Assembly (NCBI GenBank): GCA_964638545.1 | Contig: CAZXAM010000001.1 | Coordinates: 83,330 to 147,329 of the forward strand | Direction of reading: 5' to 3' | Origin: an uncultured Rikenellaceae bacterium | GTDB taxonomy: Bacteria > Bacteroidota > Bacteroidia > Bacteroidales > VadinHA17 | DNA: 64,000 bases | Shown: positions 1,484 through 60,105 of the stretch, piece by piece | Layout of the letters: each line of letters opens with the position of its first letter | How positions within the stretch are numbered: position 1 is the first letter of the stretch | Notes under the pieces: model-generated | The model's input: the letters and a program-made list of their open reading frames with translations, nothing else | Told to the model about the DNA's origin: nothing | The model's database searches: none | Program-made: the position numbers and the translations under genes

Positions 1484-4284
1484 TCATTTTACGGGACCCA
1501 GGTAATTATCCATGAAGGTTAAAACCTCCCTGATCATTTCATTTTTGGGGATGTAATGATCTGTTTCATAAATACGGATATGTTTATCCTTTAACGGAGT
1601 TCCCATCAGATCAAAAAAAGGTTTCACCGTTGTTTCATATGGAAATGCCATGTCATATTTTCCGTTTAGCATTAAAACTGGAATCCTTGCATAAGGAAGA
1701 TAATTGAACTCATCAGCTTCGGGAATTCGATCATTTGATTCCAGCCCTCCAACAATTAATACGCTCGCTTTAAGGCGGTCTTCAACTGCCGGGATAATAG
1801 CTCCGAGGCTAGCTCCCCAACTATGCCCGTAATAGCATAATTTCCCGGTGTCAATATCCGGTCGCGTCTGCAGGTAATCAATGGACCTGCTGAAATCTTT
1901 AACCCACTTAATTAACCATTCCTCATACTGACGGCCCTGCCAGGTTATAGTTTCCTGGCCATCTTTTCTCTCGAATGTTCCCTTGTAGACTGGGTATAAA
2001 ACAGCCCGGCCACTCTTAAGAATAAAATCGGTAAACCAGTTTGCCCAGTAATTATCGTTGAAGTCCTTGCTGCCAATCGCATTGCTTCCAGGGAAAAAGA
2101 TAAGGGTTTGGTAGGGAGGAGTTGTATTTCTAGGTAAAAAAAGATAACCGATCATTCTTTCATTGTCATAAGCCGCATTGAATGTAATTTTCTCGATAAT
2201 CCAATCCTGGAAACTGCTGTCACTGCTTTCAATTGCTGTGTTCAACTCCTTATTATCATAAAGAAACCTGTTTTTATAAATTCTGAATACAGATTCCGTA
2301 ACTGGCTTTTCTTTGGAATAATCTCTTTTTTCGCTGAATTCATAAGTCTGGAATGCAGTCTGTGGGATTTCCTCTTTATCGATATACTTAACACAACGAA
2401 ACCCGTTTTTTGGTGACCTGTTAAGAGGAGGCAGCTGGCTTATATTGCTGTACATGTAAACAACATCGTCCCATCCGCCACCTCGCACAACCCGTCCATC
2501 AGGTGCCATATTCCAGCACCATTCCCTCACATTCCCAGCCATATCGAAGGCACCAAAACAATTTATCCCCGGATTACTGCCTACCCTTTCCGCGCTAATT
2601 CCTTTAAAGTTGCTGAATGGAAAAAGTCTGGAATAAAAATAGTTACCGAATGCTTCATAGTCAAATCCAGATGCACTTGCCCAATGGCCGATCGTAGGAA
2701 GTTCCTTATCAGAATATTCGGCAAAGGCTGCAGCCTCGTACCAGCAGACTCCTGAAACCGGATAATCATCTTGTCCGTCCGGAAAATCGCCTGCTACCCA
2801 ATTGGAGGGTCCTGGCTGCCCGGTCTTGTCCGTAAATTCAGCCAAAGCTTCCTTAAAGGAAATTGTCTTTCCATCTTTTATGAATGTATTCTTCCAGAAT
2901 TCTGCCTTCCTGTAACCACCATTTTCGATGAATTCTTTGTACTGTCTGTTTGTTACTTCATAACGGTCAATAAAGAATCCATTTTTGGGCCCTAAGTAGT
3001 TACTTGTCAATTCGTTCTTGTAACCGTACACATAGACCATGCCTTCAGGCATTTCACCTAGTTTGAATAATTTGCGATAAACCGTGTCGATTCTTGTCTG
3101 CATTACCCCCAAAACACTTTCGTAACCAGGTTTCTCCATCTTCATCAGATAGAACGAATGTTTTGGTACCTGCAACTGTTCAATAGGTGTTTGGCCTAGA
3201 GCCTTCCATATGCCAGAAGTATCTGAGTATTCTCTGATCAGGACATTCGCTCCGACAGGTTCTGATATTATAGTAATCTTATTTGTAAAAGTTGAGACCA
3301 ATTCTATGAATCTTTCATCGTTTCCAATGTACTTTCCTGCTTTTTGAGATAAAGCAAATGCCTCATCCATTTTGGTTGCATTGGCCAATTGTTCAATCTT
3401 TGGCAAGGCTTCCCGTTTTGCCCAGTTAACCTTGGATTGATGATTAAGCAAAAATGATGTTCCGGTCAAAATTGCCAAAATTACCAGTATCCCAGGTATC
3501 AAAATCCAATGTTTGAACAAAATCCGGGACTTTTGATTATTCCCAGACTTATCTTTCTCTGTTAAGCCTTCAGGTCCTGACCTAATTATTTCGTTTTCAG
3601 ATATCTCTGAAACATTACTCTCCTTTCTCTTCTCGCCTGCTTTTCCCGCGATTTCTTTTTGCTTTGCTTTATCCTCTGGAGTATGATATTTCATACTTTC
3701 AATGATCTCCTTTATTGTCAACGCGACTTTATTTACCTGGTCACGGTAAAGTACCTGCCCCGAGCTTTTTATTATATCATCATCTTTAGCTCTAAGTTGA
3801 CGATTAACACCGGTTTCTTTATATACAAAGTCAATTGATCTCATCACACCTCCGACAACTGACTCAAATAGCCTGGTATCGGCAATTTCAAGGTCATGAA
3901 TCCGAATAGGAAGAACCCTGTTGGCAACATTGCCGCTGGATAGTTTAATTTTAAATCCAAACCTATCCTCTGTTGCCATCTTTATGAATGTTTTTAGCTC
4001 ATTGTCCCAGGCAAACGACCTTGGATCACAGTATGTCCGCGAAATATAGGCACAAAAACCAAGCTTTTCAGTTTATCTTGAAGTGAAGCATTCACATCAT
4101 AGGACTCAAGAAGATAGTCGCTGGGATTAATGTCAAAATATACACTTATTTCATCCTTAAACATTGTCTCAAGTTCTCCCTTCAGGTTATCTACAAACTC
4201 TGTTACCCACCCATCATGCTTGTTGTCCTTCTGGCGGTAGCTGATGAAGATGTCGTAATTATATCCTTCAATTATGCTTGACAT
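1484..4284 (-). pseudogene. Frameshifted paralogue of the TIR-TM-PEGA-FGE-like-alpha/beta-hydrolase receptor
   Basis: ORFs 3994..4287 (97 aa) and 1484..3979 (831 aa) are two halves of one gene. The 97-aa piece matches residues 1-80 of the intact paralogue (11579..14386), then leaves frame. Shifting frame at about 4045-4048 restores ISRTYCDPRSFAWDNELKTFIKMATEDRFGFKIKL, colinear with the paralogue. A 1-nt deletion in CCTAT.ATTTCG explains this. The true start is ATG 4284-4282 (the first M in the track is a TTG). It could also be a sequencing error. Confidence 0.75.
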
Positions 4285-4307
4285 CAATGTATTATTTGGT
4301 TCATTAT

Positions 4308-4339
4308 CAAAGTTAAACCATTGTCAGGCTAAATGCAAA
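4308..4339 (-). promoter_or_regulatory. Putative Bacteroidota sigma-A promoter (TTTGCA ... 20 nt ... TAACTTTG) of the TIR gene
   Basis: Minus-strand reading: TTTGCATTTAGCCTGACAATGGTTTAACTTTG, about 24 nt before the ATG. It fits the -33 TTTG / -7 TAnnTTTG consensus and is conserved upstream of four TIR genes. Confidence 0.5.
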
Positions 4340-4396
4340 ATATTCTTTTTATTTTAGAAAATCAATACAAAACCTCTACCAGTTCAACTAATTCTA

Positions 4397-4446
4397 CTAT
4401 GTCTCTGATTAAACTCAGGTTAGATATTTCAAACCTCTTGTCTACA
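4397..4446 (-). promoter_or_regulatory. Conserved ~50-nt upstream motif (CTATGTCTCTGATTAA.CTCAGGT.AGATATTT.AAACC..TTGT.TACA)
   Basis: Near-identical block at 14496..14545, at the same distance upstream of the other TIR-FGE gene. A 27-nt core, TCAAGGTTAGATATTTCAAACCTCTTG, recurs at 16219..16245. Confidence 0.5.
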
Positions 4447-4640
4447 CCAAAAAAGCCCTGGCGCAAAGCGCCGGGGTTTTTTATTGGAGATCCGTCATCC
4501 CGCCTTGCAGGATGTAAGGATCGAACAATAAAAACTCCGTACCGTGCGAATGCACGGCAGGGCTTTTTCGGTGTTAAGCACCCCCTGAGGAACGCGATCC
4601 GCCGGCTGGCGGAGAGCATAATCCTATGATCTACCCCCAA
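4444..4640. repeat. Composite ~195-bp intergenic repeat, copy 2
   Basis: Direct-orientation partner of 1170..1364. It also contains the small hairpin TCCGCC-GGCT-GGCGGA, which recurs at about 51132-51147. Confidence 0.75.
4449..4482 (-). terminator. Hairpin flanked by an A-run and a T-run, homologous to 1175..1209 but with a different stem sequence
   Basis: aaaaaagCCCTGGCGCaaaGCGCCGGGGtttttt. The structure is kept while the stem sequence differs from copy 1. Confidence 0.55.
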
Positions 4641-4898
4641 ACCCCACCTCGCCTTCGCGTAGCCGCTTCGGCGGAGCAAGGCAAGGGGGGCTTTAATGCT
4701 GAAAATAATTGACTATTTTTTATACAATAAAGCTCTCTAAAAGATTGCGCTGCAAGGCTTTTGACTTGTTAAGCACCCCCAAAAGGATCATGTAATAATC
4801 CTCCCCTTACCTCCCATCCGGATAATTTAACCTCATTCAAATGAATATATCTAATTGAAAATTCATTTATATCTGGCCAAATCTGGCGGAGCATAAAA

Positions 4899-7076
4899 TT
4901 ATTTTTTAGGCAGATTAACCTTTTTCAGAAATTCATCCCAACGGGGATCATCATGAAGAGATGTAAAAACCGGTAGTACGGCTGCCCAGGCTGCATTGCC
5001 TGAATGTGGTTCATAATTAAGCCATTTGAAAGCTTCATCTTTTCTACCCATTGCTGCATAAACCTTCGATCGTTGATATGCACTCATTGGCGTTACTTCT
5101 TTTTTTTCTATCTCGGCCAGGATCTTTTCAGCTTCCTCCTGGTGCCCTGTCGCAATATATGTCAGGCATAGGGGAAATAGATTGCCAGGAGCGACTTCTG
5201 CATGTTTCAAATGTGCTTTAATCGCTTCCTCATTTCTACCCAAACCCAGATACGCATTACCCAGTATCTGATAGCCAAGAGGATAATCCTTTTGAATTTC
5301 AAGGGATCTAAGGGCTTCCTGAATTGCTTCTTCATTCCTGCCCGCATAAATATATAAACCTCCCAGCCAGGCTGTATGGAGCGGATTATACGGATCATAT
5401 TTCTGAGCCAATTTATGTTCTGCAATGGCTTCTTCCATGCGACCCCAAAGGAACAGGCCCCAGGCAAAATGGTAATGGGCCATATCCAGGTTCGGATTTA
5501 ATTCCAGGGCACGCTTAAAATGTTTTTCTGATTTAGCAAAATCCCATGATTTATAGAGGTATACTATAGCCAGAGCAGCATGGACTTCAGCAATAGTAGA
5601 ATCAAGCATAAGTGCTTTATAAGCAAATTCTTCTCCTTTTGCGAGTACATCTCCGGGATCAAGCGGACTATGAGCAATTGACAGATAACCCAGTGCAAGC
5701 CCTGCGTTTGCAAATGCATCTTCAGGAGCGATCCTTACCGCTTCATGAAGGTATTCCAGTCCTTTTGCGTTTCCTTCTTTCGTCGATTTTTCTATTTCAG
5801 CCATTCCCCTGGAATATGCTTCATAAGATTGCGGATTGACCCTGCTTGGCTGAGAAAGTTTTAACAAGTCCTGCGGCAGTAAATCAAGTCCGATCTTCTG
5901 AGTAATCTGCTCTGCAATGTTTTTATGCACTATATGAATATTTGAACGGCTAATTGAATAATTGTTCGCCAGAATAAGTTTTTCTTCGGGAAATATCTGG
6001 ATCAGCCTTATCATAATTTCCTCAAGGTCACCGGATCCTAATACTGAACCTTCAATCAGAAAATCGACCCGGGCATCCTTAGCTATTTTGGCTAATGACA
6101 CTCTATCCCTTTCTAACGCAGCAGTTGTCCGTAAGCCTACAATTCTTAATGGTTTTACCTGGCTTATTCTTCCTAACTCCTGATACGAAGCCTCACGGTG
6201 CATATCAGTCAGATAATCATTTGAAGAATCACCTGTAAGATTTTTAAAAGGCATTAAAGCGACCGACCTTTCAACACCTGGCTCATCTGACTTTCTGAAT
6301 AATTTCGGATAAACAAGTATTGCAGCGATTATTAATATCACCGTGATTAATCCTCCATAAATTACCTTCTGTCTGGATGATTTTGAAATTCCTGCATGCT
6401 TCGATACTTTTTCTTCTCCGACTACTTCTTCGATTGTCCTTTTTTGTTGATCCTTTTCTATCAGTGATTCAGATGGTATTGTGAGTAATCCCATAATAAG
6501 CTCTTTTATTGCAAGAGCGACTTTATTTATCTGATTACGATAATTGGTTTTGTTTAAGTTTTTTTCCTCATTATCTTTTGGTGAAAGTGATCTGTTAACT
6601 CCTGGTTCTTTATAAATGAATTCGACACCACGGAGCACTCCTCCTGTCAGTGATTCACAAAGCTCTATATCCTCATTATCCAGGTCATGAATGCGAACAG
6701 GTAGAACTCTGCTGGCCACATTGCCATTTGGTAATTTTACTTTTAATCCAAACTGGTCCTTAGATGCCTGTTCAACAAACGCCTTAAATTCATGTTCCCA
6801 TGCAAAAGACTTTGGATCACAATAGGTTCGGGAAATAATCGGAATAAAAACCAGGCACCTGAGCTTTTCTTTCAGCGACTCATCCACATCATGTGTTTCA
6901 AGAAGGCCGTCATGAGGATTTATATCGAAGTAAACACTGATTTCTTCCTTAAAAGTGGCTTCGAGCTCTTTCTTCAGGTTTTCAACGAACTCAGTTACCC
7001 ACCCGTCATACTTGTTGTCCTTCTGGCGGTAACTGATAAAGATGTCGTAATTATATCCCTCAATTATACTTGACAT
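4899..7076 (-). CDS. TIR-domain single-pass membrane receptor with TolB-N-like + TPR periplasmic tail (725 aa)
   Basis: The N-terminus MSSIIEGYNYDIFISYRQKDNKYDGWV...VFIPIISRTYCDPKSFAWEHEF gives a TIR_2-like signature. One hydrophobic helix (VIYGGLITVILIIAAILVYP) follows. Next comes VALMPFKNLTGDSSNDYL...LIEGSV, the module seen in CadC/cyclase/kinase-linked TPR sensors. TPR-like repeats run to the C-terminus. Confidence 0.8.
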   Translation of the reverse strand: MSSIIEGYNYDIFISYRQKDNKYDGWVTEFVENLKKELEATFKEEISVYFDINPHDGLLETHDVDESLKEKLRCLVFIPIISRTYCDPKSFAWEHEFKAFVEQASKDQFGLKVKLPNGNVASRVLPVRIHDLDNEDIELCESLTGGVLRGVEFIYKEPGVNRSLSPKDNEEKNLNKTNYRNQINKVALAIKELIMGLLTIPSESLIEKDQQKRTIEEVVGEEKVSKHAGISKSSRQKVIYGGLITVILIIAAILVYPKLFRKSDEPGVERSVALMPFKNLTGDSSNDYLTDMHREASYQELGRISQVKPLRIVGLRTTAALERDRVSLAKIAKDARVDFLIEGSVLGSGDLEEIMIRLIQIFPEEKLILANNYSISRSNIHIVHKNIAEQITQKIGLDLLPQDLLKLSQPSRVNPQSYEAYSRGMAEIEKSTKEGNAKGLEYLHEAVRIAPEDAFANAGLALGYLSIAHSPLDPGDVLAKGEEFAYKALMLDSTIAEVHAALAIVYLYKSWDFAKSEKHFKRALELNPNLDMAHYHFAWGLFLWGRMEEAIAEHKLAQKYDPYNPLHTAWLGGLYIYAGRNEEAIQEALRSLEIQKDYPLGYQILGNAYLGLGRNEEAIKAHLKHAEVAPGNLFPLCLTYIATGHQEEAEKILAEIEKKEVTPMSAYQRSKVYAAMGRKDEAFKWLNYEPHSGNAAWAAVLPVFTSLHDDPRWDEFLKKVNLPKK

Positions 7077-7099
7077 CTGCCTATTAAATGGTTCATTAT

Positions 7100-7131
7100 C
7101 AAAATTAACCCATTATCAGGGTAATTGCAAA
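7100..7131 (-). promoter_or_regulatory. Putative promoter of the 4899..7076 TIR gene (TTTGCA ... TAATTTTG)
   Basis: Minus strand: TTTGCAATTACCCTGATAATGGGTTAATTTTG. Same architecture and near-identical sequence as at 4308..4339, 14409..14440 and 30113..30144. Confidence 0.5.
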
Positions 7132-7309
7132 AATTTTTTCTATGACTGAAGGCAACGGCAATGAAGCACAGCTGATGCGGGATTGCCAATTGATTCTGGC
7201 GTTTAAGGATCAGTTCATCTGGCTTAGACATCAAAATAATCTTCTATCTTGTATTTCATAGGTTTATTTTGTATTTTTGATATAACTGAGAGTAGCTAAA
7301 ACCCAGATA

Positions 7310-9265
7310 ATGAACCTGGCTCACACAAGTGACAGGGAGTTTATTCAAAAGCTGACTGAATTAGTCGAATTAAACCTTGAGGATGAAAAATTCGGAGTGG
7401 ATGTTCTTATACAACTCTCTGGCTTAAGTCCACACATTGTAAGGCAAAGGATTAAAAAAATCTCTCAAAAAACTATAAGCCAGTTCATTAACGAAATCAG
7501 GTTGCGACGGGCAATGGAGATGTTGCAACAGGGCATGATAACAGCCTCAGAAGTCGCCTATAAAGTAGGTTTCGGAAGCGCTACTTATTTTAACAACTGT
7601 TTCCATGATTTCTATGGTTATCCTCCGGGGGAAGTGAAGAAAAGAGGTATGACCGGGATTAAAGAGGACCATGGCGGACATGACCCAGGGAATTTGATGC
7701 CCGTATCAGTAAAGAAAAGACCCTCCCTTAAGCGGAAGATAGTGATCGTTTCATTTGCTCTTTTAGCTGTTCTTCTGTCAGCTCTTATAATTTATTATTT
7801 TCTGTTTAATAAATCGGGAAGAAATTTTAGCAGTCCGGACAAGGAAATCTCTATTGCAGTACTGCCTTTTACAAACCTGAGTGATTCTCCTGAAAACAGA
7901 TATTTCACGGATGGTGTAATGGAAGACATCCTGAGCAACCTGAACCGGATCAGTTCAATAAAGGTTACTTCCAGAACATCGGTTGAAAAGTACCGACAGA
8001 CAACCAGGGGTGCAACAGAAATAGCAAAAGAGCTGAACGTCAGGTATATTCTTGAGGGGAGTGTTCAGAGGAGCAATGATAAGGTAAGAGTCAGGGTGCA
8101 ACTGATCGATGCCAGGCGCGACCAGCATATTCTATCCGAAACATTTGACAGGGAGCTGGATGATATCTTCTATATCCAAAGCAATATTGCAATCCAGATA
8201 GCCAACGAACTGGAAGCTGCACTTTCGCCCGGGGAGACTGAAATGATCGGATATATCCCTACCAGGAATACAGAAGCCTATTCGCTCTATTTAAAAGGCC
8301 GTTATTTCTGGTATAAAAGGACAAGGGAAGGATTCGAAAAAAGTATTGAATTTTTCGAGAAAGCTGTTGAAGCCGATCCCGGTTATGCACTGGCATGGGC
8401 AGGACTGGGTGATGGCTATTTCTATCTTTCATGGTACAATTGGTTTGAACCTGGCCGGGAACAAGGATTTGAAAAAGCAAAAGAAATTGCATTGAAGGCC
8501 ATCAGACTTGATAATGACCTGGCGGAAGCTCATGTTTTGCTGGGAAATGTTTATTTCTGGCATGAATGGAACTGGCAGGAAGCAGAAAAGGAGTTGTCAT
8601 TAGCTGTCAAATTGAATCCGAACTATTACATGGCTCATTGGGTTTATGCAGAACTACTGGATGTTCTGGCCAAAAGAGTGGAAGCCAGAGCCCATTTAAA
8701 CCGCGCACTTGAACTGGACCCGGTTTTTTACCTCCCCTACAGCACCAGTGCATTGCTTTATTACAATGATGGAAATTTTAAGGGTGCGATTAAAGATTGC
8801 CACAAGTGCATTGAGTTAAATCCGGATTATAATTCAGCTTACTATCATGCCTGGTTTAGTTACCTGCAGCTCGACAGTATTCCCCAGGCTATTCACTTCC
8901 TTCAGGAATTGTTATTGGTTGATTATAATACCGGTTATTCAGATTCAAAATACTATGAATCTGTAGATTCCGTCTTCAAAACGGCAGGCATGGAAGGATT
9001 ACTGCAATGGATGCTTCAAAACAGATATGCGCAATCCAGTTTTATAGGAAAAGCCAGATTACTTATGATGATTGGCAACAGGGAGGAAGCGGTCAGGAGC
9101 CTTGAACTGGGATATAAATTGCATGAGCGTGATATGGTCAGAATCATCTCAATATATGATTTAGTTGATCTCCGCTCTGAGCCACGTTATATGGAAATCG
9201 TCAAAAACATGGGGTTGGCGGATTACTTAAATGTAGCCCTGGCTTCAGGACAGTTGCCACAATGA
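7310..9265 (+). CDS. AraC-family HTH single-pass membrane regulator with TolB-N-like + TPR periplasmic tail (651 aa)
   Basis: The N-terminal region FINEIRLRRAMEMLQQGMITASEVAYKVGFGSATYFNNCFHDFYGYPPGEV is a classic AraC/XylS HTH_18 region. It is followed by a TM helix (IVIVSFALLAVLLSALIIYYFLF), then ISIAVLPFTNLSDSPENRYFTDGVMEDIL...YILEGSVQ...VQLIDAR, then TPRs. The tail is roughly half identical by eye to the tail of the TIR protein at 57961..60105. Confidence 0.85.
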   Translation: MNLAHTSDREFIQKLTELVELNLEDEKFGVDVLIQLSGLSPHIVRQRIKKISQKTISQFINEIRLRRAMEMLQQGMITASEVAYKVGFGSATYFNNCFHDFYGYPPGEVKKRGMTGIKEDHGGHDPGNLMPVSVKKRPSLKRKIVIVSFALLAVLLSALIIYYFLFNKSGRNFSSPDKEISIAVLPFTNLSDSPENRYFTDGVMEDILSNLNRISSIKVTSRTSVEKYRQTTRGATEIAKELNVRYILEGSVQRSNDKVRVRVQLIDARRDQHILSETFDRELDDIFYIQSNIAIQIANELEAALSPGETEMIGYIPTRNTEAYSLYLKGRYFWYKRTREGFEKSIEFFEKAVEADPGYALAWAGLGDGYFYLSWYNWFEPGREQGFEKAKEIALKAIRLDNDLAEAHVLLGNVYFWHEWNWQEAEKELSLAVKLNPNYYMAHWVYAELLDVLAKRVEARAHLNRALELDPVFYLPYSTSALLYYNDGNFKGAIKDCHKCIELNPDYNSAYYHAWFSYLQLDSIPQAIHFLQELLLVDYNTGYSDSKYYESVDSVFKTAGMEGLLQWMLQNRYAQSSFIGKARLLMMIGNREEAVRSLELGYKLHERDMVRIISIYDLVDLRSEPRYMEIVKNMGLADYLNVALASGQLPQ

Positions 9266-11578: not shown

Positions 11579-14386
11579 TTATTTTACCCTACCAAGATAG
11601 ATGTCAAGGAATTCAAGGACATCCTTTATCATATCATCTTTGCGAATATAATGGTCAGTATCATAAATCTTTAAATGCTTATCTTCTGGCTGCGTTCCCA
11701 AAAGATCATAAAAAGGTTTTACGTTTGTCTCAAATGGAAATGCAAGATCATATTTGCCGTTCAACATTAATACTGGTATCTTTACATAAGGCAGATAATT
11801 TAATTCATCTGCTTCAGGAATGCGTTTTCTCGTAGGTAAGCCCCCGACAATTAAGACACTAACTTTAAGACGGTCTTCAACTGCAGGAATTATCGCTCCA
11901 AGTCTCCCGCCCCAGCTATGACCATAGTAGGCCAGTTTCCCGGTATCAATATCCGATCTGGTAAAAAGATAATCAATCGATCTTTTAAAATCCTTAACCC
12001 ATTTAGTCAACCAATCAGCGTACTGATGGCCCTCATTTGTTACTGGTTTTTCGTTATCTATTCTTTCAAAGGTCCCATCATAAACCGGATATAGGACAGC
12101 ACGTCCGCTCTTCAGAATAAAGTCTGTGAACCAATTTGCCCAGTAATTTTTATTGAAATCCGTGGTACTAAGCGCATTACTGCCGGGGAAAAAAATGAGT
12201 GTCTGATAGGGCGGTGGAGAATTTTTTGGTATGAAGAGATATGCAATCATCTTTTCATTATTATACGCTGCATTGAAGGTGACTTTTTCAAGTATCCAAT
12301 CCTGATAACTGCTGTCCCGGCTTTCTATCAGGGCGTCTAATGGTATATTATCATAAAGAAACCTGCTTTTATAAATCCTGTAGGTAACCTCCGGAACCGG
12401 CCTTTCGATTGCATAGTTTCTGGATTCAGGGAGTATATACGATTGAAAAGCCGATTCAGGAATTTTTTCTTCATTTAAATATTTAACACATCGAAATCCA
12501 TTTTTGGGTGATCTGTCAAATGGAGGCAGCTGACTTATATTACCATACATATAAACAACATCATCCCACCCGCCTCCTCTCATTATCCTGCCATCAGGAC
12601 CCTGGTTCCAGCACCATTCTCTTACATTGCCCGCCATATCAAGCGCCCCGAAGCAGTTAATTGCAAAATTGGTTCCAACAGGTAAAGGGCCTGCTCCTTT
12701 AAAGTTGCTTAAAGGAAATAGTTTTGAATAGAAATAGTTTCCGAATGCTTCAAATTGGAATCCAGCTGCACTTCCCCAGTGATTGACGGTTGGAAGTTTC
12801 TTGCCGGCGTATTCAGCATAGGCTGCAGCCTCATACCAACTTATACCAGATACCGGATAATTTTCATATCCATCAGGGTAGTCGCCGGCAATCCACGTTG
12901 ATGGTCCGGGTTGTCCCGTTTTGTCCTTAAACTCAGTGAATGCCTCACTTAACGTTAATTTTTTCCCATCCTTTATGAAGTCATATTTCCAGTATTCTGG
13001 TTTCCTGTAACCACCTTCATTAACGAATTTTTTAAATTCTTTATTGGTAACTTCACAGCGATCAATCAAAAAACCATTCTTGTTTTTAAGATAATTACCT
13101 AATAATTCATTCTGGTAACCATATACATATATCATCCCGGGTGGAATAGTTCCCTGCTTGAATAACCTTCTGAAAATCGTATCAATCCTTGTCTGCATTA
13201 CAGCATCAATACTCTCATAGCCGGGTTTTTCAATTTTCATAAGGTAGAAGCTATGTTTTGGGACCAGGACTTGTCCTATCGGTGTCTTACCAAGATACTT
13301 CCATTGAGCAGCCGTATCAGAAAAGTCTCTGATCCTTACCTCCGCACCATCAGGATCAGTAATAATTGAAATATTTGTGGTAAAAGAAGATACCAATTCA
13401 TTGTAATTCTTGTTTTTTGAAAGATACTTTGCAACTTCCTGAGACAGCTTAAATGCTTCATCCATATTATTGCTGTTTGCAAGCTGTTCAATTTGAGGTA
13501 GCGCTTTTTCTCTTGCCCATTTGATCTTTGATTGCCGGTTAATTAAAATACCAATCATTAAAACAGAAGATAAAACAAACAGTATTAAAAGGAACATAAA
13601 CCATTTCCTTTTAAATAATAAAATCGCTCTTCTTCTTTCAGGGATTGGTAACTCCATTATTTGATCCTTCCCGATTACTTCTCCATTTTTATATTCAGGT
13701 TTTTCTGACCTAATTCTAATTTCATCTTCCCCCTTATGATCAAAATCTCTGATGTTATTTTCGGTCTTCATGTTCTCAGATGAGAAGGATATCATACTAT
13801 CAACCATCTCCTTGATTGCTAATGCAACCTTATTAATCTGGTCTCGGAAAAGTACCTGGCCCGGATATCTTACTATATCATCATCCTTACTTCTCAGCTG
13901 TCGGTTTACACCTGTTTCCTTATAAACAAAATCAATTGATCTCATAATACCGCCAACAACTGATTCGAATAATTTTATATCCCCTGGATCAAGATCATGA
14001 ATCCGGATTGGCAACACTCTGCACGCCACATTTCCGTTCAGAAGCTTGATTCTTAATCCAAACTTGTCTTCAGATGCCAGCTTCACAAATTCTTTCAACT
14101 CATTGTCCCAGGCAAATGCTTTTGGATCGCAATATGTCCTTGAAACAATCGGAATGAATATCAGACATTTGAGTCTGTCTCTTAAAGAGTCTTTTACGTC
14201 ATATGATTCAAGAAGATAGTCGCTGGGATTTATATCATAATATAGACTTACATCATCTTTAAACATTGAATCAAGTTCTCCTTTGAGATTCTCAACAAAC
14301 TCCGCCACCCAGTTATCGTGTTTGTTATCCTTCTGGCGGTAACTAATAAAGATGTCGTAATTGTAACTTTCAATAATGCTTGACAT
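11579..14386 (-). CDS. TIR-TM-PEGA-FGE/SUMF1-like-alpha/beta-hydrolase receptor (935 aa)
   Basis: TIR head at residues 1-~190 (DIFISYRQKDNKHDNWV...IFIPIVSRTYCDPKAFAWDNEL). TM helix at about 262-282 (WFMFLLILFVLSSVLMIGILI). PEGA-like segment at about 338-395 (ITDPDGAEVRIRD...GKTPIG...KIEKPGYES). FGE-sulfatase-like domain at about 418-636 (IDRCEVTNKEFKKFV...GNVREWCWN...RGGGWDD...GFRCVKY). C-terminal alpha/beta-hydrolase with G-H-S824-W-G, D880 and H912 (DLH / S9-peptidase-like). Confidence 0.85.
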   Translation of the reverse strand: MSSIIESYNYDIFISYRQKDNKHDNWVAEFVENLKGELDSMFKDDVSLYYDINPSDYLLESYDVKDSLRDRLKCLIFIPIVSRTYCDPKAFAWDNELKEFVKLASEDKFGLRIKLLNGNVACRVLPIRIHDLDPGDIKLFESVVGGIMRSIDFVYKETGVNRQLRSKDDDIVRYPGQVLFRDQINKVALAIKEMVDSMISFSSENMKTENNIRDFDHKGEDEIRIRSEKPEYKNGEVIGKDQIMELPIPERRRAILLFKRKWFMFLLILFVLSSVLMIGILINRQSKIKWAREKALPQIEQLANSNNMDEAFKLSQEVAKYLSKNKNYNELVSSFTTNISIITDPDGAEVRIRDFSDTAAQWKYLGKTPIGQVLVPKHSFYLMKIEKPGYESIDAVMQTRIDTIFRRLFKQGTIPPGMIYVYGYQNELLGNYLKNKNGFLIDRCEVTNKEFKKFVNEGGYRKPEYWKYDFIKDGKKLTLSEAFTEFKDKTGQPGPSTWIAGDYPDGYENYPVSGISWYEAAAYAEYAGKKLPTVNHWGSAAGFQFEAFGNYFYSKLFPLSNFKGAGPLPVGTNFAINCFGALDMAGNVREWCWNQGPDGRIMRGGGWDDVVYMYGNISQLPPFDRSPKNGFRCVKYLNEEKIPESAFQSYILPESRNYAIERPVPEVTYRIYKSRFLYDNIPLDALIESRDSSYQDWILEKVTFNAAYNNEKMIAYLFIPKNSPPPYQTLIFFPGSNALSTTDFNKNYWANWFTDFILKSGRAVLYPVYDGTFERIDNEKPVTNEGHQYADWLTKWVKDFKRSIDYLFTRSDIDTGKLAYYGHSWGGRLGAIIPAVEDRLKVSVLIVGGLPTRKRIPEADELNYLPYVKIPVLMLNGKYDLAFPFETNVKPFYDLLGTQPEDKHLKIYDTDHYIRKDDMIKDVLEFLDIYLGRVK

Positions 14387-27674: not shown

Positions 27675-30089
27675 TCAGTTCTGATTATACTTTTCCAAGA
27701 TATTCTTAAACTCAGGCTGATTTTTTAATGGTTCCCATATCGGGTCCGTCTCGAGGATCTTAGTTGAGAGGAATCCCGGCATTGCCAAAAGATATTTTAT
27801 TTGCTCCAATGCTTCAGGGTATTTTCCAATCATCACATAGGTATGTGCAAGATCCTCAACCAGGAAAACTCCCCTCCATGCTTCTTTGCTTACCGGGAGC
27901 ATCTTTACGGCTTTCTCATTTAGGCTGACTGCTGCTTCTTCCATGCCTAATCCGGCATTAGCTATTCCCAGAGAACTGTACAGCCTAGGATCCTGCGGAA
28001 AACGATTGATCATATTTTCAAGCATTATGCGGGCTGAATCGTAATAGGCATGCTCGAGCTCAGGTTTATTAATAAAACCGTAAGCAGCAGCATAGTAAAG
28101 ATATTTTGGCCTGAAATAAAACTGACTCTGAAATGCGGCCGATGAGGTCAACGAAAGATCTGCCAGAGCTTCTTTGTATCTGCCATCATATAAATCTATA
28201 ACGACTTTCAATTCTACAAAAAGGGAATCTGACATAAAAGACCTGTTATTAATTTCTCCGTTTTCCAGTACTGCCCTTGCTTTTTTACTGTCGCCCTGCC
28301 ATCTGAGAAACATCTGAGACATGTAAAGATATGGTTGAATCCATTCCGGCTGAAGCATGATAGACAAATTATAATAATATTCAGCTTTCGGATAGTTTCG
28401 ACGCAGGTCAAATATTTCAGCAGCATCATCTGCATACCGGGAAGATCTAGGGTCAAGTTCAAAAGCCCTGGTTAAACAAGACTCCGCCAATGCCCAGTTC
28501 CCTGACCGCCTGTGTACAGCCCCTGACCAATATATAGCTTCCGTGTTTTTGGGTTGCTCTTTCAGTACTATTTCAAATTGTTTAAGGGCTTCAGGGTAAT
28601 TCAAATAACCCATATAGTAATAAATCCCAAAAACCAGATGGGCCTCGGGAAGGTCGGGATCAATCTCGAAAGCTATGTCAATAGCCTGTTTGCACTTAGG
28701 GATTATATCTTCACTTCTGTCCTGGTTAAACCAGTATCTGATCAATAAGCAATAAGCAGTTCCTGTATAAGCCAGGGCAAATTCAGGATCAAGTTCTATT
28801 GCTTTTCCATATAGTTTGTTGGCGGTTTTCAGGTCTTCAATATCGAAACTTTTCCGATAATAGAAATTCGCCTGAAGATAGTAATTGTAAGCTTCCAGGT
28901 TATTTGTCGGTTTCTTTTCAATTTTTTCTAATTCGTCAGGCGACAGAATCTCTTTAAGTTCGCTCGCAATGTCTTTGGCTATGTCGCTCTGAAGAGAAAA
29001 GATCTGTTGCATTTCCCTAACATATTCATTTGACCAGATATGTTTATCGGATTTTGAATCAATCAATTGAACCCAAATCTTTAATTTATTCCCTTCACGT
29101 CCAACACTCCCTTCAACCAGATAATTTGCATTAAGCTCGTTACCGATTATAGCAATGGATTTTTTTGAATCCCTGTATTGGTCTGAAGATGTTCTGGACC
29201 TTACCGTGAAACTTTTTACTGTCTGAAGATTATTGAGGACCTCCTCCATAAAACCATCACAAAAGTACAACTGGGTTGTATCATTGCTGAGGTTCCGGAA
29301 AGGGAGAACCGCAATAGTTTTTTCAGTCGTTTTGAACGGTTTAATGTATTTAGGAATAAAGAAGTACGCAAGCAGAACAAGAACAAGCAATACGAAAATA
29401 ACCGTAATGATTTTTGGTTTCAGATTTCTTCCCAGTTCAGGCTTTTCTTCTACATATCCTTTTGAAACCTTGCCACCCTCTATACTAAATGCATTCAGGG
29501 CAGAAATAACCTCTTTGATTGCATTACCAACCTTATTTATCTGGTTCCTGTAATTTGTATGATTCAGATTTTCCTGTGGATTTTCCTCCTTCGGCATCAA
29601 TGGCCTGTTTACCCCAGCCGATCTGAAGATAAAGTCAACACCGCGAAGCATTCCGCCCAAAACTGATTCACACGATTTAATATCGGTGGCGTCCAGATCA
29701 TAAATACGAACAGGAAGTACTCTGCTCGCAACATTCCCGTTAGGTAATTTTACCTTCAATCCAAACCTGTCATTGGATGCCTGCTCCACAAATGCCTTAA
29801 ACTCATGCTCCCATGCAAAGGATTTCGGATCGCAGTACGTGCGGGAAATAATCGGAATAAAAACCAGGCACCTGAGCTTTTCTTTCAGCGACTCATCCAC
29901 ATCATGTGTCTCAAGAAGTCCGTCATGAGGATTTTGATCGAAGTAGACACTGATTTCTTCCTTAAAAGTGGCTTCGACCTCTTTCTTAAGGTTTTCAACG
30001 AACTCAGTTACCCATCCGTCATACTTATTGTCTTTCTGTCGGTAACTGATAAAGATGTCGTAATTATATCCTTCGATAATGCTTGACAT
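27675..30089 (-). CDS. TIR-domain single-pass membrane receptor with TolB-N-like + TPR periplasmic tail (804 aa)
   Basis: Head residues 1-129 differ from the 4899..7076 protein at only 4 positions by my count. A TM helix (IITVIFVLLVLVLLAYFFIP) follows, then IAVLPFRNLSNDTTQLYFCDGFMEEVL...YLVEGSV...VQLID, then a long TPR-like region. Confidence 0.8.
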   Translation of the reverse strand: MSSIIEGYNYDIFISYRQKDNKYDGWVTEFVENLKKEVEATFKEEISVYFDQNPHDGLLETHDVDESLKEKLRCLVFIPIISRTYCDPKSFAWEHEFKAFVEQASNDRFGLKVKLPNGNVASRVLPVRIYDLDATDIKSCESVLGGMLRGVDFIFRSAGVNRPLMPKEENPQENLNHTNYRNQINKVGNAIKEVISALNAFSIEGGKVSKGYVEEKPELGRNLKPKIITVIFVLLVLVLLAYFFIPKYIKPFKTTEKTIAVLPFRNLSNDTTQLYFCDGFMEEVLNNLQTVKSFTVRSRTSSDQYRDSKKSIAIIGNELNANYLVEGSVGREGNKLKIWVQLIDSKSDKHIWSNEYVREMQQIFSLQSDIAKDIASELKEILSPDELEKIEKKPTNNLEAYNYYLQANFYYRKSFDIEDLKTANKLYGKAIELDPEFALAYTGTAYCLLIRYWFNQDRSEDIIPKCKQAIDIAFEIDPDLPEAHLVFGIYYYMGYLNYPEALKQFEIVLKEQPKNTEAIYWSGAVHRRSGNWALAESCLTRAFELDPRSSRYADDAAEIFDLRRNYPKAEYYYNLSIMLQPEWIQPYLYMSQMFLRWQGDSKKARAVLENGEINNRSFMSDSLFVELKVVIDLYDGRYKEALADLSLTSSAAFQSQFYFRPKYLYYAAAYGFINKPELEHAYYDSARIMLENMINRFPQDPRLYSSLGIANAGLGMEEAAVSLNEKAVKMLPVSKEAWRGVFLVEDLAHTYVMIGKYPEALEQIKYLLAMPGFLSTKILETDPIWEPLKNQPEFKNILEKYNQN

Positions 30090-30112: not shown

Positions 30113-30144
30113 CAAAGTTAAACCATTATGATAACAAATGCAAG
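30113..30144 (-). promoter_or_regulatory. Putative promoter of the 27675..30089 TIR gene (cTTGCA ... TAACTTTG)
   Basis: Minus strand: CTTGCATTTGTTATCATAATGGTTTAACTTTG. Homologous to the other three TIR promoters, with a weaker -33. Confidence 0.45.
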
Positions 30145-57960: not shown

Positions 57961-60105
57961 TTACATTTTCACTTTCCCCATGATCTCGGTAAACTCCCGG
58001 GTGGACCTGAGATTTCTGTATGATGTCGTATCCACGTTCATCAATAAAAGGAAGAATTCTTCCCTCTCTTCATATCCCATTCTGAGATAGTTCAGCGCCT
58101 CCTTATTCCGGCCTATCTCTGCCATCAGGGCTCCTATCATGCTCCGGGGAACGAATCCGGTCCTGTTCCTTGCCAATAATGTATCGAGCAATCTGCCGGT
58201 TTCATTCAGGGCGCCTGATCTGCTGTATGCAACGCCCAGATGAGTTATCGACAGCGGAGAGAAGCCTGCCAGTGTTTTCTCCAATTCCTCGATTGATTTT
58301 TTATACTCTCCCTCAAAAAGATAAATTGCCCCCAGATAATAGTGACACACTGGAAATTTCCCGACCATTTTTGTAAGCAGGGATATGGCTGAATCCTTCT
58401 CACCAGCCTTATAGAGATGCACTGCATATAAGCCGTCGTTTATTGAATATGAAGGGTCAAGATCTATGTTCATGGCACGACGATCCCATTCAACTGCCTC
58501 AGCGAATTTCCCCATGAAGAATGACATTTCAGCAAAGTATTTATATACCTCAGGATTATTGGGGGCTAATTCAAGGGCTCGTCTGTAGTTTCGTTCAGCA
58601 GTTTCAAAATTGAAATTATATAAGAGGTCAGCGACACCGATAACAAAGTAGGCGTCAGCAAGCAAACTGTCAAGTTCCAGGGCTTTGTATGCAAGTTCCA
58701 CGGATGGAGGGTACGCTTCAACCGGCCTCAGATTTGCATAAAATGCCAAAGTCCCGTAGCAACGGGCAAGTCCGGTATATGCTTTTGCAAACCCGGGATC
58801 TGCTTCAATGGCTTTCTCAAAAAGCGTTTTGGCTTTCCATAATGATTCCGGTGTGCGCTGTGCACGCAAATGCTCTCCGAGAAGAAAGTAATCATAGGCC
58901 TCCAGGTTTTCAGAAGGGATTTTCTCAATCAGGTTTTTTTCCTCAGGCTCGATGACAGCTTTCAGTTCCCTGGCAACAGTCTGTGCCACCTCACTCTGAA
59001 TGGAAAAGATGTCGGAAATGTCTTTGTCATAGATCTCCGACCATAGATGTGTATCGGTCCGGGCATCAATCAGCTGAACCGAAATACGCACATTATTGCC
59101 CATCTTCCTCACACTCCCTGCAAGGATAGCCCCAACATTCAACTCACGGGCTATCTCCTTTAACGACAGAGTAGTGTTTTTGTATCTCATAGTTGTTGTG
59201 CGGGAAGTTACTTTCAGATCGCCTATTTTAAAAAGGCGGTCAATTATCTCATCCACCATTCCATCGCTGAAATATTCCTGGTTCGGATCGTTGCTCAGGT
59301 TTGCAAACGGCAGGACAGCTATGGATTTATCAATTGCTGATGAACTTCCCGGGGAATGCTTTATTAACGGGGGAATGATAAACAAACCTGCGATCAGAAA
59401 AGTGATGAACAGGGCAGCAGGGAGTGTTATCTTTTTCCATGGAATCTTCCCTTTTTCACTTTTATTCTCTGTTATTAACGATGCCCCTGATTGAGTCTTC
59501 ACATCTGGTTTCTGAATCCCTTCAATGATCTCTTTTATTGCATTGGCAACCTTATTTATCTGATTTTTGTATCTTGTCTTATTCAAATTTTTCTTTTCAT
59601 CATCGACAGGAGTAAGCGGTCTGTTAACTCCGGGCTCTTTATAAATAAACTCGACACCACGCAGCATTCCTCCTGAAACTGATTCATATTCTTTAATATC
59701 TGCAACATCCAGGTCATGAATGCAAACCGGCAGCACCCTGCTTGCTACATTCCCGCCAGAAAGTTTTATTTTCAATCCGAACTGATCTTTCGAAGCCTGT
59801 TCAACAAACGCCCTGAACTCATGTTCCCAGGCAAATGATTTAGGATCGCAATAAGTACGGGAGATGACAGGAATGAATATCAGGCATTTCAGTTTCTCCT
59901 TCAACGATTCATCCACATCATGTGTTTCAAGCAATCCGTCGTGTGGATTGATATCGAAATAAACACTGATCTCCTCCTTGAATGTAGATTCGAGTTCCGT
60001 TTTTAATGAATCTACAAACTCACTTACCCACTGCTCACCTTTATTATCCTTCTGGCGGTAAGAGATGAAGATGTCGTAATTATATCCGGGGATCAGGCTT
60101 GGCAT
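57961..60105 (-). CDS. TIR-domain single-pass membrane receptor with TolB-N-like + TPR periplasmic tail (714 aa)
   Basis: The head is MPSLIPGYNYDIFISYRQKDNKGEQWV...IFIPVISRTYCDPKSFAWEHEF. A TM helix (ITLPAALFITFLIAGLFIIPPLI) follows, then SIAVLPFANLSNDPNQEYFSDGMVDEII...ILAGSV...VQLIDAR, then TPRs. Confidence 0.8.
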   Translation of the reverse strand: MPSLIPGYNYDIFISYRQKDNKGEQWVSEFVDSLKTELESTFKEEISVYFDINPHDGLLETHDVDESLKEKLKCLIFIPVISRTYCDPKSFAWEHEFRAFVEQASKDQFGLKIKLSGGNVASRVLPVCIHDLDVADIKEYESVSGGMLRGVEFIYKEPGVNRPLTPVDDEKKNLNKTRYKNQINKVANAIKEIIEGIQKPDVKTQSGASLITENKSEKGKIPWKKITLPAALFITFLIAGLFIIPPLIKHSPGSSSAIDKSIAVLPFANLSNDPNQEYFSDGMVDEIIDRLFKIGDLKVTSRTTTMRYKNTTLSLKEIARELNVGAILAGSVRKMGNNVRISVQLIDARTDTHLWSEIYDKDISDIFSIQSEVAQTVARELKAVIEPEEKNLIEKIPSENLEAYDYFLLGEHLRAQRTPESLWKAKTLFEKAIEADPGFAKAYTGLARCYGTLAFYANLRPVEAYPPSVELAYKALELDSLLADAYFVIGVADLLYNFNFETAERNYRRALELAPNNPEVYKYFAEMSFFMGKFAEAVEWDRRAMNIDLDPSYSINDGLYAVHLYKAGEKDSAISLLTKMVGKFPVCHYYLGAIYLFEGEYKKSIEELEKTLAGFSPLSITHLGVAYSRSGALNETGRLLDTLLARNRTGFVPRSMIGALMAEIGRNKEALNYLRMGYEEREEFFLLLMNVDTTSYRNLRSTREFTEIMGKVKM

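Follow-up and report, generated by a model that had tools for sequence, protein, structure and literature searches.

Two receptor genes with a TIR-like head

The DNA analysed here (the window) is a stretch of 64,000 nucleotides from an uncultured Rikenellaceae bacterium, corresponding to positions 83330 to 147329 of contig C1 in G000, a 3.23-Mb draft genome of 81 contigs that is ~94% complete. Two of its genes, A (4899-7076) and B (27675-30089), both on the minus strand, belong to one receptor family and carry N-terminal heads that are nearly identical as proteins, and it is the origin of this near-identity that we address. Members of the family have a conserved N-terminal head of ~200 aa, one transmembrane (TM) helix and a variable tail; the TIR-like head is cytoplasmic and the tail lies on the outer side. 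The tails are of two kinds, either TolB-like with TPR or an FGE-sulfatase-like domain with a hydrolase. Both A and B have a TolB-like/TPR tail, with the TM helix at ~aa 238-256 in A and ~aa 227-245 in B, and their lengths of 725 and 804 aa are those given in an earlier reading of this DNA (the original prediction).

G000 contains at least 12 full-length paralogs of the family, five of them inside the window and one of these, gene E, frameshifted. In other genomes of the genus the number of matches reaches 34 or more, and the copies often form tandem arrays; public homologues are labelled as Bacteroidales or Bacteroidia metagenome-assembled genomes. The tail-orthologs of A are P0126-P0134 (76-81% identical), and those of B are P0007 (83%) and P0008 (79%).

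Naming the head by Pfam, NCBIfam and PADLOC gave only sub-threshold matches, to TIR_2, FxsC and bSEFIR, and a profile of 27 heads reached E=0.17 to the flax L6 TIR among PDB sequences. An AlphaFold2 model was built from the 27 heads, with a predicted local distance difference test score (pLDDT) of 76.5 and a predicted template modelling score (pTM) of 0.78. When this model was compared with the PDB by Foldseek, the top 43 matches were all TIR domains (SNC1, SARM1 and RUN1 among them; best E=2.6e-5), with target-normalised template modelling scores of 0.55-0.6 for isolated TIR-domain entries. Because the top matches of the model are TIR domains, we call the head TIR-like by its predicted fold, which matches that of bacterial and eukaryotic TIR domains such as SARM1, plant TNL TIRs, AbTir and BtpA. 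The opening-strand motif xDIFISYR and an invariant Glu after a conserved Trp are further likenesses; however, the head is ~60 residues longer than the core domain and falls below the TIR_2 threshold. The Glu is E96, invariant in 27/27 heads; its motif, A-W-x-x-E, lies where helix 91-106 begins. It stands at W+3 in the head, whereas the Glu of TIR NADases stands at W+4.

The A-B patch and tests for recombination

The original prediction described an identity cliff, in which A and B differ at only four of their first 129 residues and then diverge. Translations and a per-codon comparison gave the same four replacements, at positions 38, 52, 106 and 108, so that 125/129 residues are identical, and the head DNA (6690-7076 vs 29703-30089) is similar as well, with 41 differences in 387 nt (89.4% identity). 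The decay beyond residue 129 was also recovered, amino-acid identity being ~64-68% over residues 121-200, and past the TM helix the tails are indeed only distantly related (BLASTP, 26% identity over 264 aa).

Along the DNA, nt 1-18 of the genes contain 4 differences (78% identical) and nt 19-248 contain 11 (95.2% identical), this second segment closing with 68 nt of unbroken identity up to nt 248; from nt 249 onwards there is a difference every 3-9 nt, and nt 249-387 are 81.3% identical. The edge in the DNA is therefore sharp and lies at nt 248/249 (codon 83; window 6829 and 29842), directly after the unbroken stretch. We refer to nt 19-248, or codons 7-82, as the patch; it occupies 6829-7058 in A and 29842-30071 in B, both on the minus strand.

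By the Nei-Gojobori method, the proportion of synonymous sites that differ (pS) between A and B is 0.18 in codons 7-82, corresponding to a synonymous divergence (dS) of ~0.21, and the non-synonymous proportion (pN) is 0.016. In codons 83-129, the rest of the TIR-like core (6690-6828 in A and 29703-29841 in B, minus strand), pS is 0.77, that is, saturated, and pN is 0.023. Codons 130-200, which hold the distal head and linker (6477-6689 in A and 29490-29702 in B, minus strand), have a pS of 0.90 and a pN of 0.26. All other comparisons among 21 heads give a pS of at least 0.67 in codons 7-82. At conserved residues, A and B use identical codons at 65/73 positions in the patch and at 21/44 in codons 83-129 (Fisher p=2e-6).

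Because the synonymous sites of codons 83-129 are saturated and the non-synonymous divergence (dN) is 0.023, the protein identity there comes from purifying selection and not from recent copying; across the whole family, dN/dS in the core is a few percent. The protein cliff at residue 129 is the end of the strongly constrained core and not a DNA breakpoint. The proposal that the cliff marks a recombination breakpoint thus holds in part: a breakpoint exists, but at codon 83 and not at residue 129. Comparing head and tail at synonymous sites, the check named in the original prediction, likewise gave a divided result: gene conversion is borne out by low synonymous divergence, permutation, trees and topology tests for codons 7-82, but not for codons 83-129, which are saturated like the tail.

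A permutation test of the GENECONV type (our own implementation and not the GENECONV program, with site-order permutation over 12 paralog heads and 2000 permutations) returned A-B nt 19-248 as the top fragment, with a global P <0.0005. Two further tracts were significant, C57_10386/C57_13121 at nt 57-129 (P=0.0015) and C57_355/C57_6320 at nt 9-108 (P=0.0115), so that tracts were found in 3/66 paralog pairs of G000. In a maximum-likelihood (ML) tree of codons 7-82, A and B are sisters (support 98/94), and the approximately unbiased (AU) test rejects the grouping {B, P0007, P0008} (p=4.5e-4). For codons 130-200 the ML tree gives the clade {B, P0007, P0008} (support 100/99) and the AU test rejects an {A,B} clade (p=4e-7); codons 83-129 give no resolved placement of A and B.

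Over nt 19-248, B is saturated against P0007 or P0008 (pS 0.93-1.0), while A and B are 95% identical. Inside the patch, therefore, the two paralogs are closer to each other than B is to its orthologs, and their synonymous divergence is lower than in the flanks (pS 0.18 vs 0.77 and 0.90), both of which are expected of a conversion tract; the trees conflict across the patch edges, and the length of the tract exceeds what permutation produces. When the B patch was searched in 151 species-level genomes of the genus, A matched at 95% and everything else at <=83%, with no external donor above that level. Since no match above 83% was found beyond A, the source of the patch probably lies within the genome.

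We conclude, with a probability of about 0.82, that the near-identity of the A and B heads results from an interlocus gene conversion patch together with purifying selection on the rest of the core, in a family whose heads and tails re-assort. A 230-bp internal patch (gene nt 19-248) was copied by homologous recombination between loci 23 kb apart, at ~dS 0.2 and after B had split from its nearest known tail-orthologs (tail dS ~0.6). Strong purifying selection has held codons 83-129 protein-identical while their synonymous sites are saturated, and from codon 130 each gene follows its own tail lineage. The sequences nearest to A in codons 130-200 are those of P0128 and P0132 (pN 0.09), and B has a pS of 0.40 to P0007 in the same codons.

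The beginning of the patch falls at the nucleotide block that is best conserved in the head, the one that encodes YDIFISYRQKDNK. Paralog heads are ~75-86% identical in nt 1-60 and ~55-70% identical beyond nt 300. In 44/65 pairs the longest exact match lies within nt 1-60 (median 17 nt, rising to 26-30 nt where no conversion tract is present), and all three significant tracts start at nt 9-57. For RecA-dependent recombination to be efficient, some 20-30 bp of identity are needed. Because the longest exact matches of the paralogs fall there, the YDIFISYRQKDNK-encoding block may act as an anchor for RecA-type, homology-dependent recombination.

As to direction, P0007 and P0008 have a head of the MPSL[IL]PG[YF]EYD...GDRWVSEF type and a class-2 promoter. 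B has a head of the MSSIIEGYNYD...KYDGWVTEF type and a class-1 promoter, the same as in A and several A-orthologs. The class-1 promoter-like motif of A (TTTG...TAATTTTG) lies at 7101-7132 and that of B (CTTG...TAACTTTG) at 30113-30144, both on the minus strand. In the patch, the pN of B is 0.05-0.06 to three A-orthologs that have the head type of A, 0.08-0.12 to the other A-orthologs and 0.105-0.148 to its own tail-orthologs. The motif types and these patch values point to transfer from the A type into B, A being the probable donor type and B the probable recipient; A-type sequence thus probably overwrote that of B. A search for B-ortholog bases retained inside the patch gave no signal on direction, P0007 being equal to B at 3/11 differing sites.

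With a patch dS of ~0.21 between A and B and a tail dS of ~0.6 between B and P0007, the exchange is younger than the B/P0007 split, yet not recent. It had been described as possibly ongoing, for which the A-B pair offers no support, 11 differences having accumulated in the 230 nt since the exchange. B and P0007 are saturated over codons 1 to ~110 and orthologous afterwards, and because of this saturation the 5' end of B may also carry an older replacement.

Heads and tails across the family

In pairs of tail-orthologs, the tails have a pS of 0.42-0.54 and the heads (codons 1-110) a pS of 0.67-0.98, the heads being ~90% identical as proteins. A maximum chi-square analysis of codon identity placed a head-side breakpoint at codons 110-255 in 9/12 pairs (permutation P <=0.03). 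The pair P0134/P0130 keeps a codon identity of 0.79 through the head, which shows that heads are not intrinsically fast at synonymous sites. Among 40 proteins of the A-tail clade, identity over head residues 1-129 is uncoupled from that of the tail (rho 0.32) and from that of residues 130-200 (rho 0.12), and residues 130-200 track the tail (rho 0.64), at a level similar to that of a control in which one half of the tail was compared with the other (0.58). On the tail tree, 9 changes are required to account for the GDRWVSEF type, which 10/40 of these proteins carry, and the two N-terminal motifs are found in all four possible combinations. Over this tree the head motif types are distributed almost at random.

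Across tail-orthologs, promoter class tracks the N-terminal motif type and not the tail; the leaders of A and B have only the promoter motif in common. These comparisons show that the unit of exchange is mainly the core (~1-129, its ends being variable) together with the promoter. Against the linker, TM helix and tail, the TIR-like core has thus been re-assorted repeatedly along with its promoter class, and the A-B patch is one dated instance of this recurrent process. The idea that one head cassette was captured repeatedly survives in this modified form, at the level of the family, as re-assortment of heads and their promoter class against tails.

Patchy head similarity is likewise seen in paralog pairs (tandem neighbours) of genomes G009 and G007, in surveys that were partial, 9/40 fetched heads having been left out. 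At locus L002 (G009:C30), in another species, the codons of two minus-strand genes starting at 3912 and 1497, the B-type ortholog and the gene next to it in tandem, agree well up to ~codon 200, where the likeness stops abruptly, an independent cliff where the head ends. In several family members we also observed the 8-mer GCACGATT in tandem (3-4 units) just ahead of the class-2 promoter; these repeats lie outside the window, in G000 on C17 (upstream of 233), C80 (upstream of 2520) and C57 (upstream of 13121).

No conserved synteny of the tail-orthologs was found on contigs L023-L031. Genes 76-83% protein-identical to A or B have wholly different neighbours on each of these contigs, among them aldo-keto reductases, glycoside hydrolases, a tannase and a transposase. 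The receptor genes do not keep their genomic position.

Two broader schemes were rejected. Sustained concerted evolution of the whole head does not fit G000, where nearly all paralog pairs are saturated or nearly so (lowest other dS 1.2). Programmed cassette variation, with silent cassettes and one expression locus, does not fit full-length copies that have their own promoter-like motif and an open frame, nor do the short head fragments in the genome qualify as promoterless cassettes, being decayed and interrupted by stops. There are four of these (G000:C6:59230, C18:48917, C18:52046 and C57:3187), in which the first 22-40 residues are followed by stops or unrelated sequence; they may be relics of past rearrangements.

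The same tails are also joined to N-terminal modules of other kinds. In the gene divergent from A (7310-9265, plus strand), an AraC-type HTH_18 head is joined to the same tail architecture of TM helix, TolB_N/FlgO and TPR. In some genomes the closest relatives of the A tail (L013 = G007:C33:45730-47106; P0214, P0221 and P0231) lack the TIR-like head and TM helix and bear instead a signal peptide at the N-terminus together with a caspase domain (Peptidase_C14, E=1e-41). A third head of ~160 aa (MAIW...LLYSRRCLE...), which matches DUF4145 weakly (E=0.13), is found both on A-type tails (P0170 and P0173) and on B-type tails (P0111 and P0113), with tail identities of 78-81% (81% for P0170, A-type, and 78% for P0111, B-type).

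The other family members of the window are all on the minus strand. Gene C (11579-14386) has a head of the same family with an FGE-sulfatase-like domain and hydrolase tail, and gene D (57961-60105) combines such a head with a TolB-like/TPR tail. Gene E (1484-4284), a paralog of the FGE type, has a frameshift at ~4045-4063 that divides its head: a 96-aa N-terminal fragment is followed by an 831-aa open reading frame that restarts at an internal Met. The two FGE-type genes, C and E, do share a head subtype, as the original prediction stated, although the second of them is frameshifted. G+C content is lower (0.38-0.42) at window positions 4001-8000, 12001-14000 and 28001-30000, where family genes lie, vs 0.45-0.50 in much of the window.

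Other explanations and significance

An alternative that we consider unlikely is capture of a cassette, in which promoter and head were joined to the B tail by a single unequal or illegitimate crossover, for example between tandem paralogs. Such an event would account for the difference between B and its tail-orthologs from the promoter class onward (class 1 vs class 2) and for the saturation of B against P0007 up to ~codon 110 with orthologous sequence afterwards; pairs of tail-orthologs, moreover, as a rule show a single breakpoint on the head side, and tandem arrays are common. However, the similarity between A and B stops upstream, where nt 1-18 are only 78% identical and the leaders have nothing but the promoter motif in common. 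Since the A-B similarity does not extend upstream, the young patch is internal and has two edges. A single-crossover capture may instead be an older, separate event in B and underlie many of the breakpoints in ortholog pairs, and not the patch.

Purifying selection acting alone, on a TIR-like core that tolerates no change and without any exchange of DNA, is very improbable as an explanation, and as a full account it is refuted by the contrast at synonymous sites. It fits codons 83-129 (pS 0.77, dN 0.023) and the dN/dS of a few percent in the core of the family, but it leaves unexplained a pS of 0.18 in codons 7-82, where all other pairs are saturated, and with it the edge at nt 248/249, the AU rejections and the gap between 95% and <=83% in the 151 genomes.

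We attach equally little weight to an assembly artefact, in which the assembler switched between A and B in a shared repeat and so produced a chimeric head. The genome is indeed a draft of 81 contigs assembled from a metagenome, and A and B have a 68-nt exact run in common; yet both genes lie on one 183-kb contig, the 11 differences are spread along the patch and both flanks differ, whereas a path switch would leave 100% identity on one side of the switch point. Comparable patches are, furthermore, present in two other genomes.

The original prediction also drew attention to near-identical antisense open reading frames, and these are present on the plus strand, each of 93 aa, at 6792-7073 in A and 29805-30086 in B. 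Least credible of all is selection at the nucleotide level, through an overlapping antisense gene or an RNA element, as the reason why the synonymous sites of A and B are alike: the antisense frame is open over nt 4-285 in both genes, but it has extra stops in 18/21 family members compared, C67 alone having it open to the same degree, and it is the A-B pair, not the region, that is marked by low synonymous divergence. As the cause of synonymous conservation the antisense frame was accordingly rejected, since it is broken in most relatives, and the two frames are mechanical by-products.

Several points weigh against the conversion patch and what we have built on it. The patch is short, with 44.5 synonymous sites and 8 synonymous differences; the permutation test assumes that there are no regional rate differences; and the first ~40 codons have a raised baseline of codon identity throughout the family (mean 0.54), owing in part to two-fold degenerate residues. 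Further paralogs may be missing from a draft of 81 contigs at ~94% completeness. With regard to direction, the GDRWVSEF type also occurs in the A-orthologs P0126, P0128 and P0129, where head types are shuffled, the branch of B is the longer one in the patch (0.064 vs 0.007), and the donor could be an unsampled close relative of A. The contigs that hold the tail-orthologs are unrelated metagenome contigs and share no synteny, so that orthology is operational here, and either heads or tails may have been the moving part. Finally, the matches of the head to Pfam TIR_2 (PF13676) score 18.7 and 14.0 bits, below the cut-off of 28.

Interlocus conversion and domain re-assortment among paralogs are well known, and the A-B patch is a clear but ordinary example. 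It resembles bacterial interlocus gene conversion in its short, delimited tract (~230 bp), in paralogs that are closer than orthologs, in reduced synonymous divergence, in the conflict of trees across the edges and in edges that lie in conserved sequence. It differs from the gene families under sustained concerted evolution described in PMC6053082 in that exchange is sporadic and patchy, most heads of G000 being synonymously saturated. The family also resembles CadC/ToxR-type one-component sensors, in that the same TM helix and TolB-like/TPR tail is found fused to AraC helix-turn-helix, TIR-like, DUF4145-like and caspase modules; in contrast to the domain shuffling of that type, re-assortment here also takes place among near-identical variants of one head type, is dated by synonymous sites and involves the promoter.

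The comparison with the diversification of immune receptors made in the original prediction is apt as an analogy and goes no further. The closest thematic parallel is mammalian TLR1/TLR6, where independent conversions have limited divergence in the signalling region, to which most of the TIR domain belongs (Kruithof et al. 2007, PMC2077338); the converted region spans ~300 aa, includes leucine-rich repeats 16-19 and the TM domain and has near-constant limits in nine species (PMC2077338). In both cases paralogous single-pass receptors have a TIR part kept alike by conversion, and in TLR1/TLR6 the ligand-binding parts diverge as the tails do here. Here, however, the tracts are short, have variable limits (codons 110-255) and leave out the TM helix and tail, and the paralogs taking part number in the dozens.

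For practical purposes, our results mean that head sequences are unusable for orthology assignment in this receptor family, and that identity cliffs at the protein level need not coincide with breakpoints in the DNA. For the biology of the family, they show, through synonymous sites that allow dating, that a very large uncharacterised group of Bacteroidales receptors evolves as two modules, a swappable TIR-like core on one side and a lineage-specific linker, TM helix and sensor on the other. Heads would act as interchangeable output modules and tails as lineage-specific sensors. The interchangeability of the heads predicts one shared biochemical output, and heads may stay interchangeable through one shared job, which could be a TIR-type NAD-consuming or signalling activity, or a common partner. 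We suggest, tentatively and as a possibility that we hold doubtful, that the TIR-like core, with its promoter, is an output cassette open to free exchange, kept functionally equivalent by recurrent conversion and re-assortment across dozens of receptors in each genome that feed one downstream pathway, for example through mixed TIR assemblies or a single common partner. If this is true, the family would be the bacterial equivalent of TLR1/TLR6, where conversion maintains TIR compatibility.

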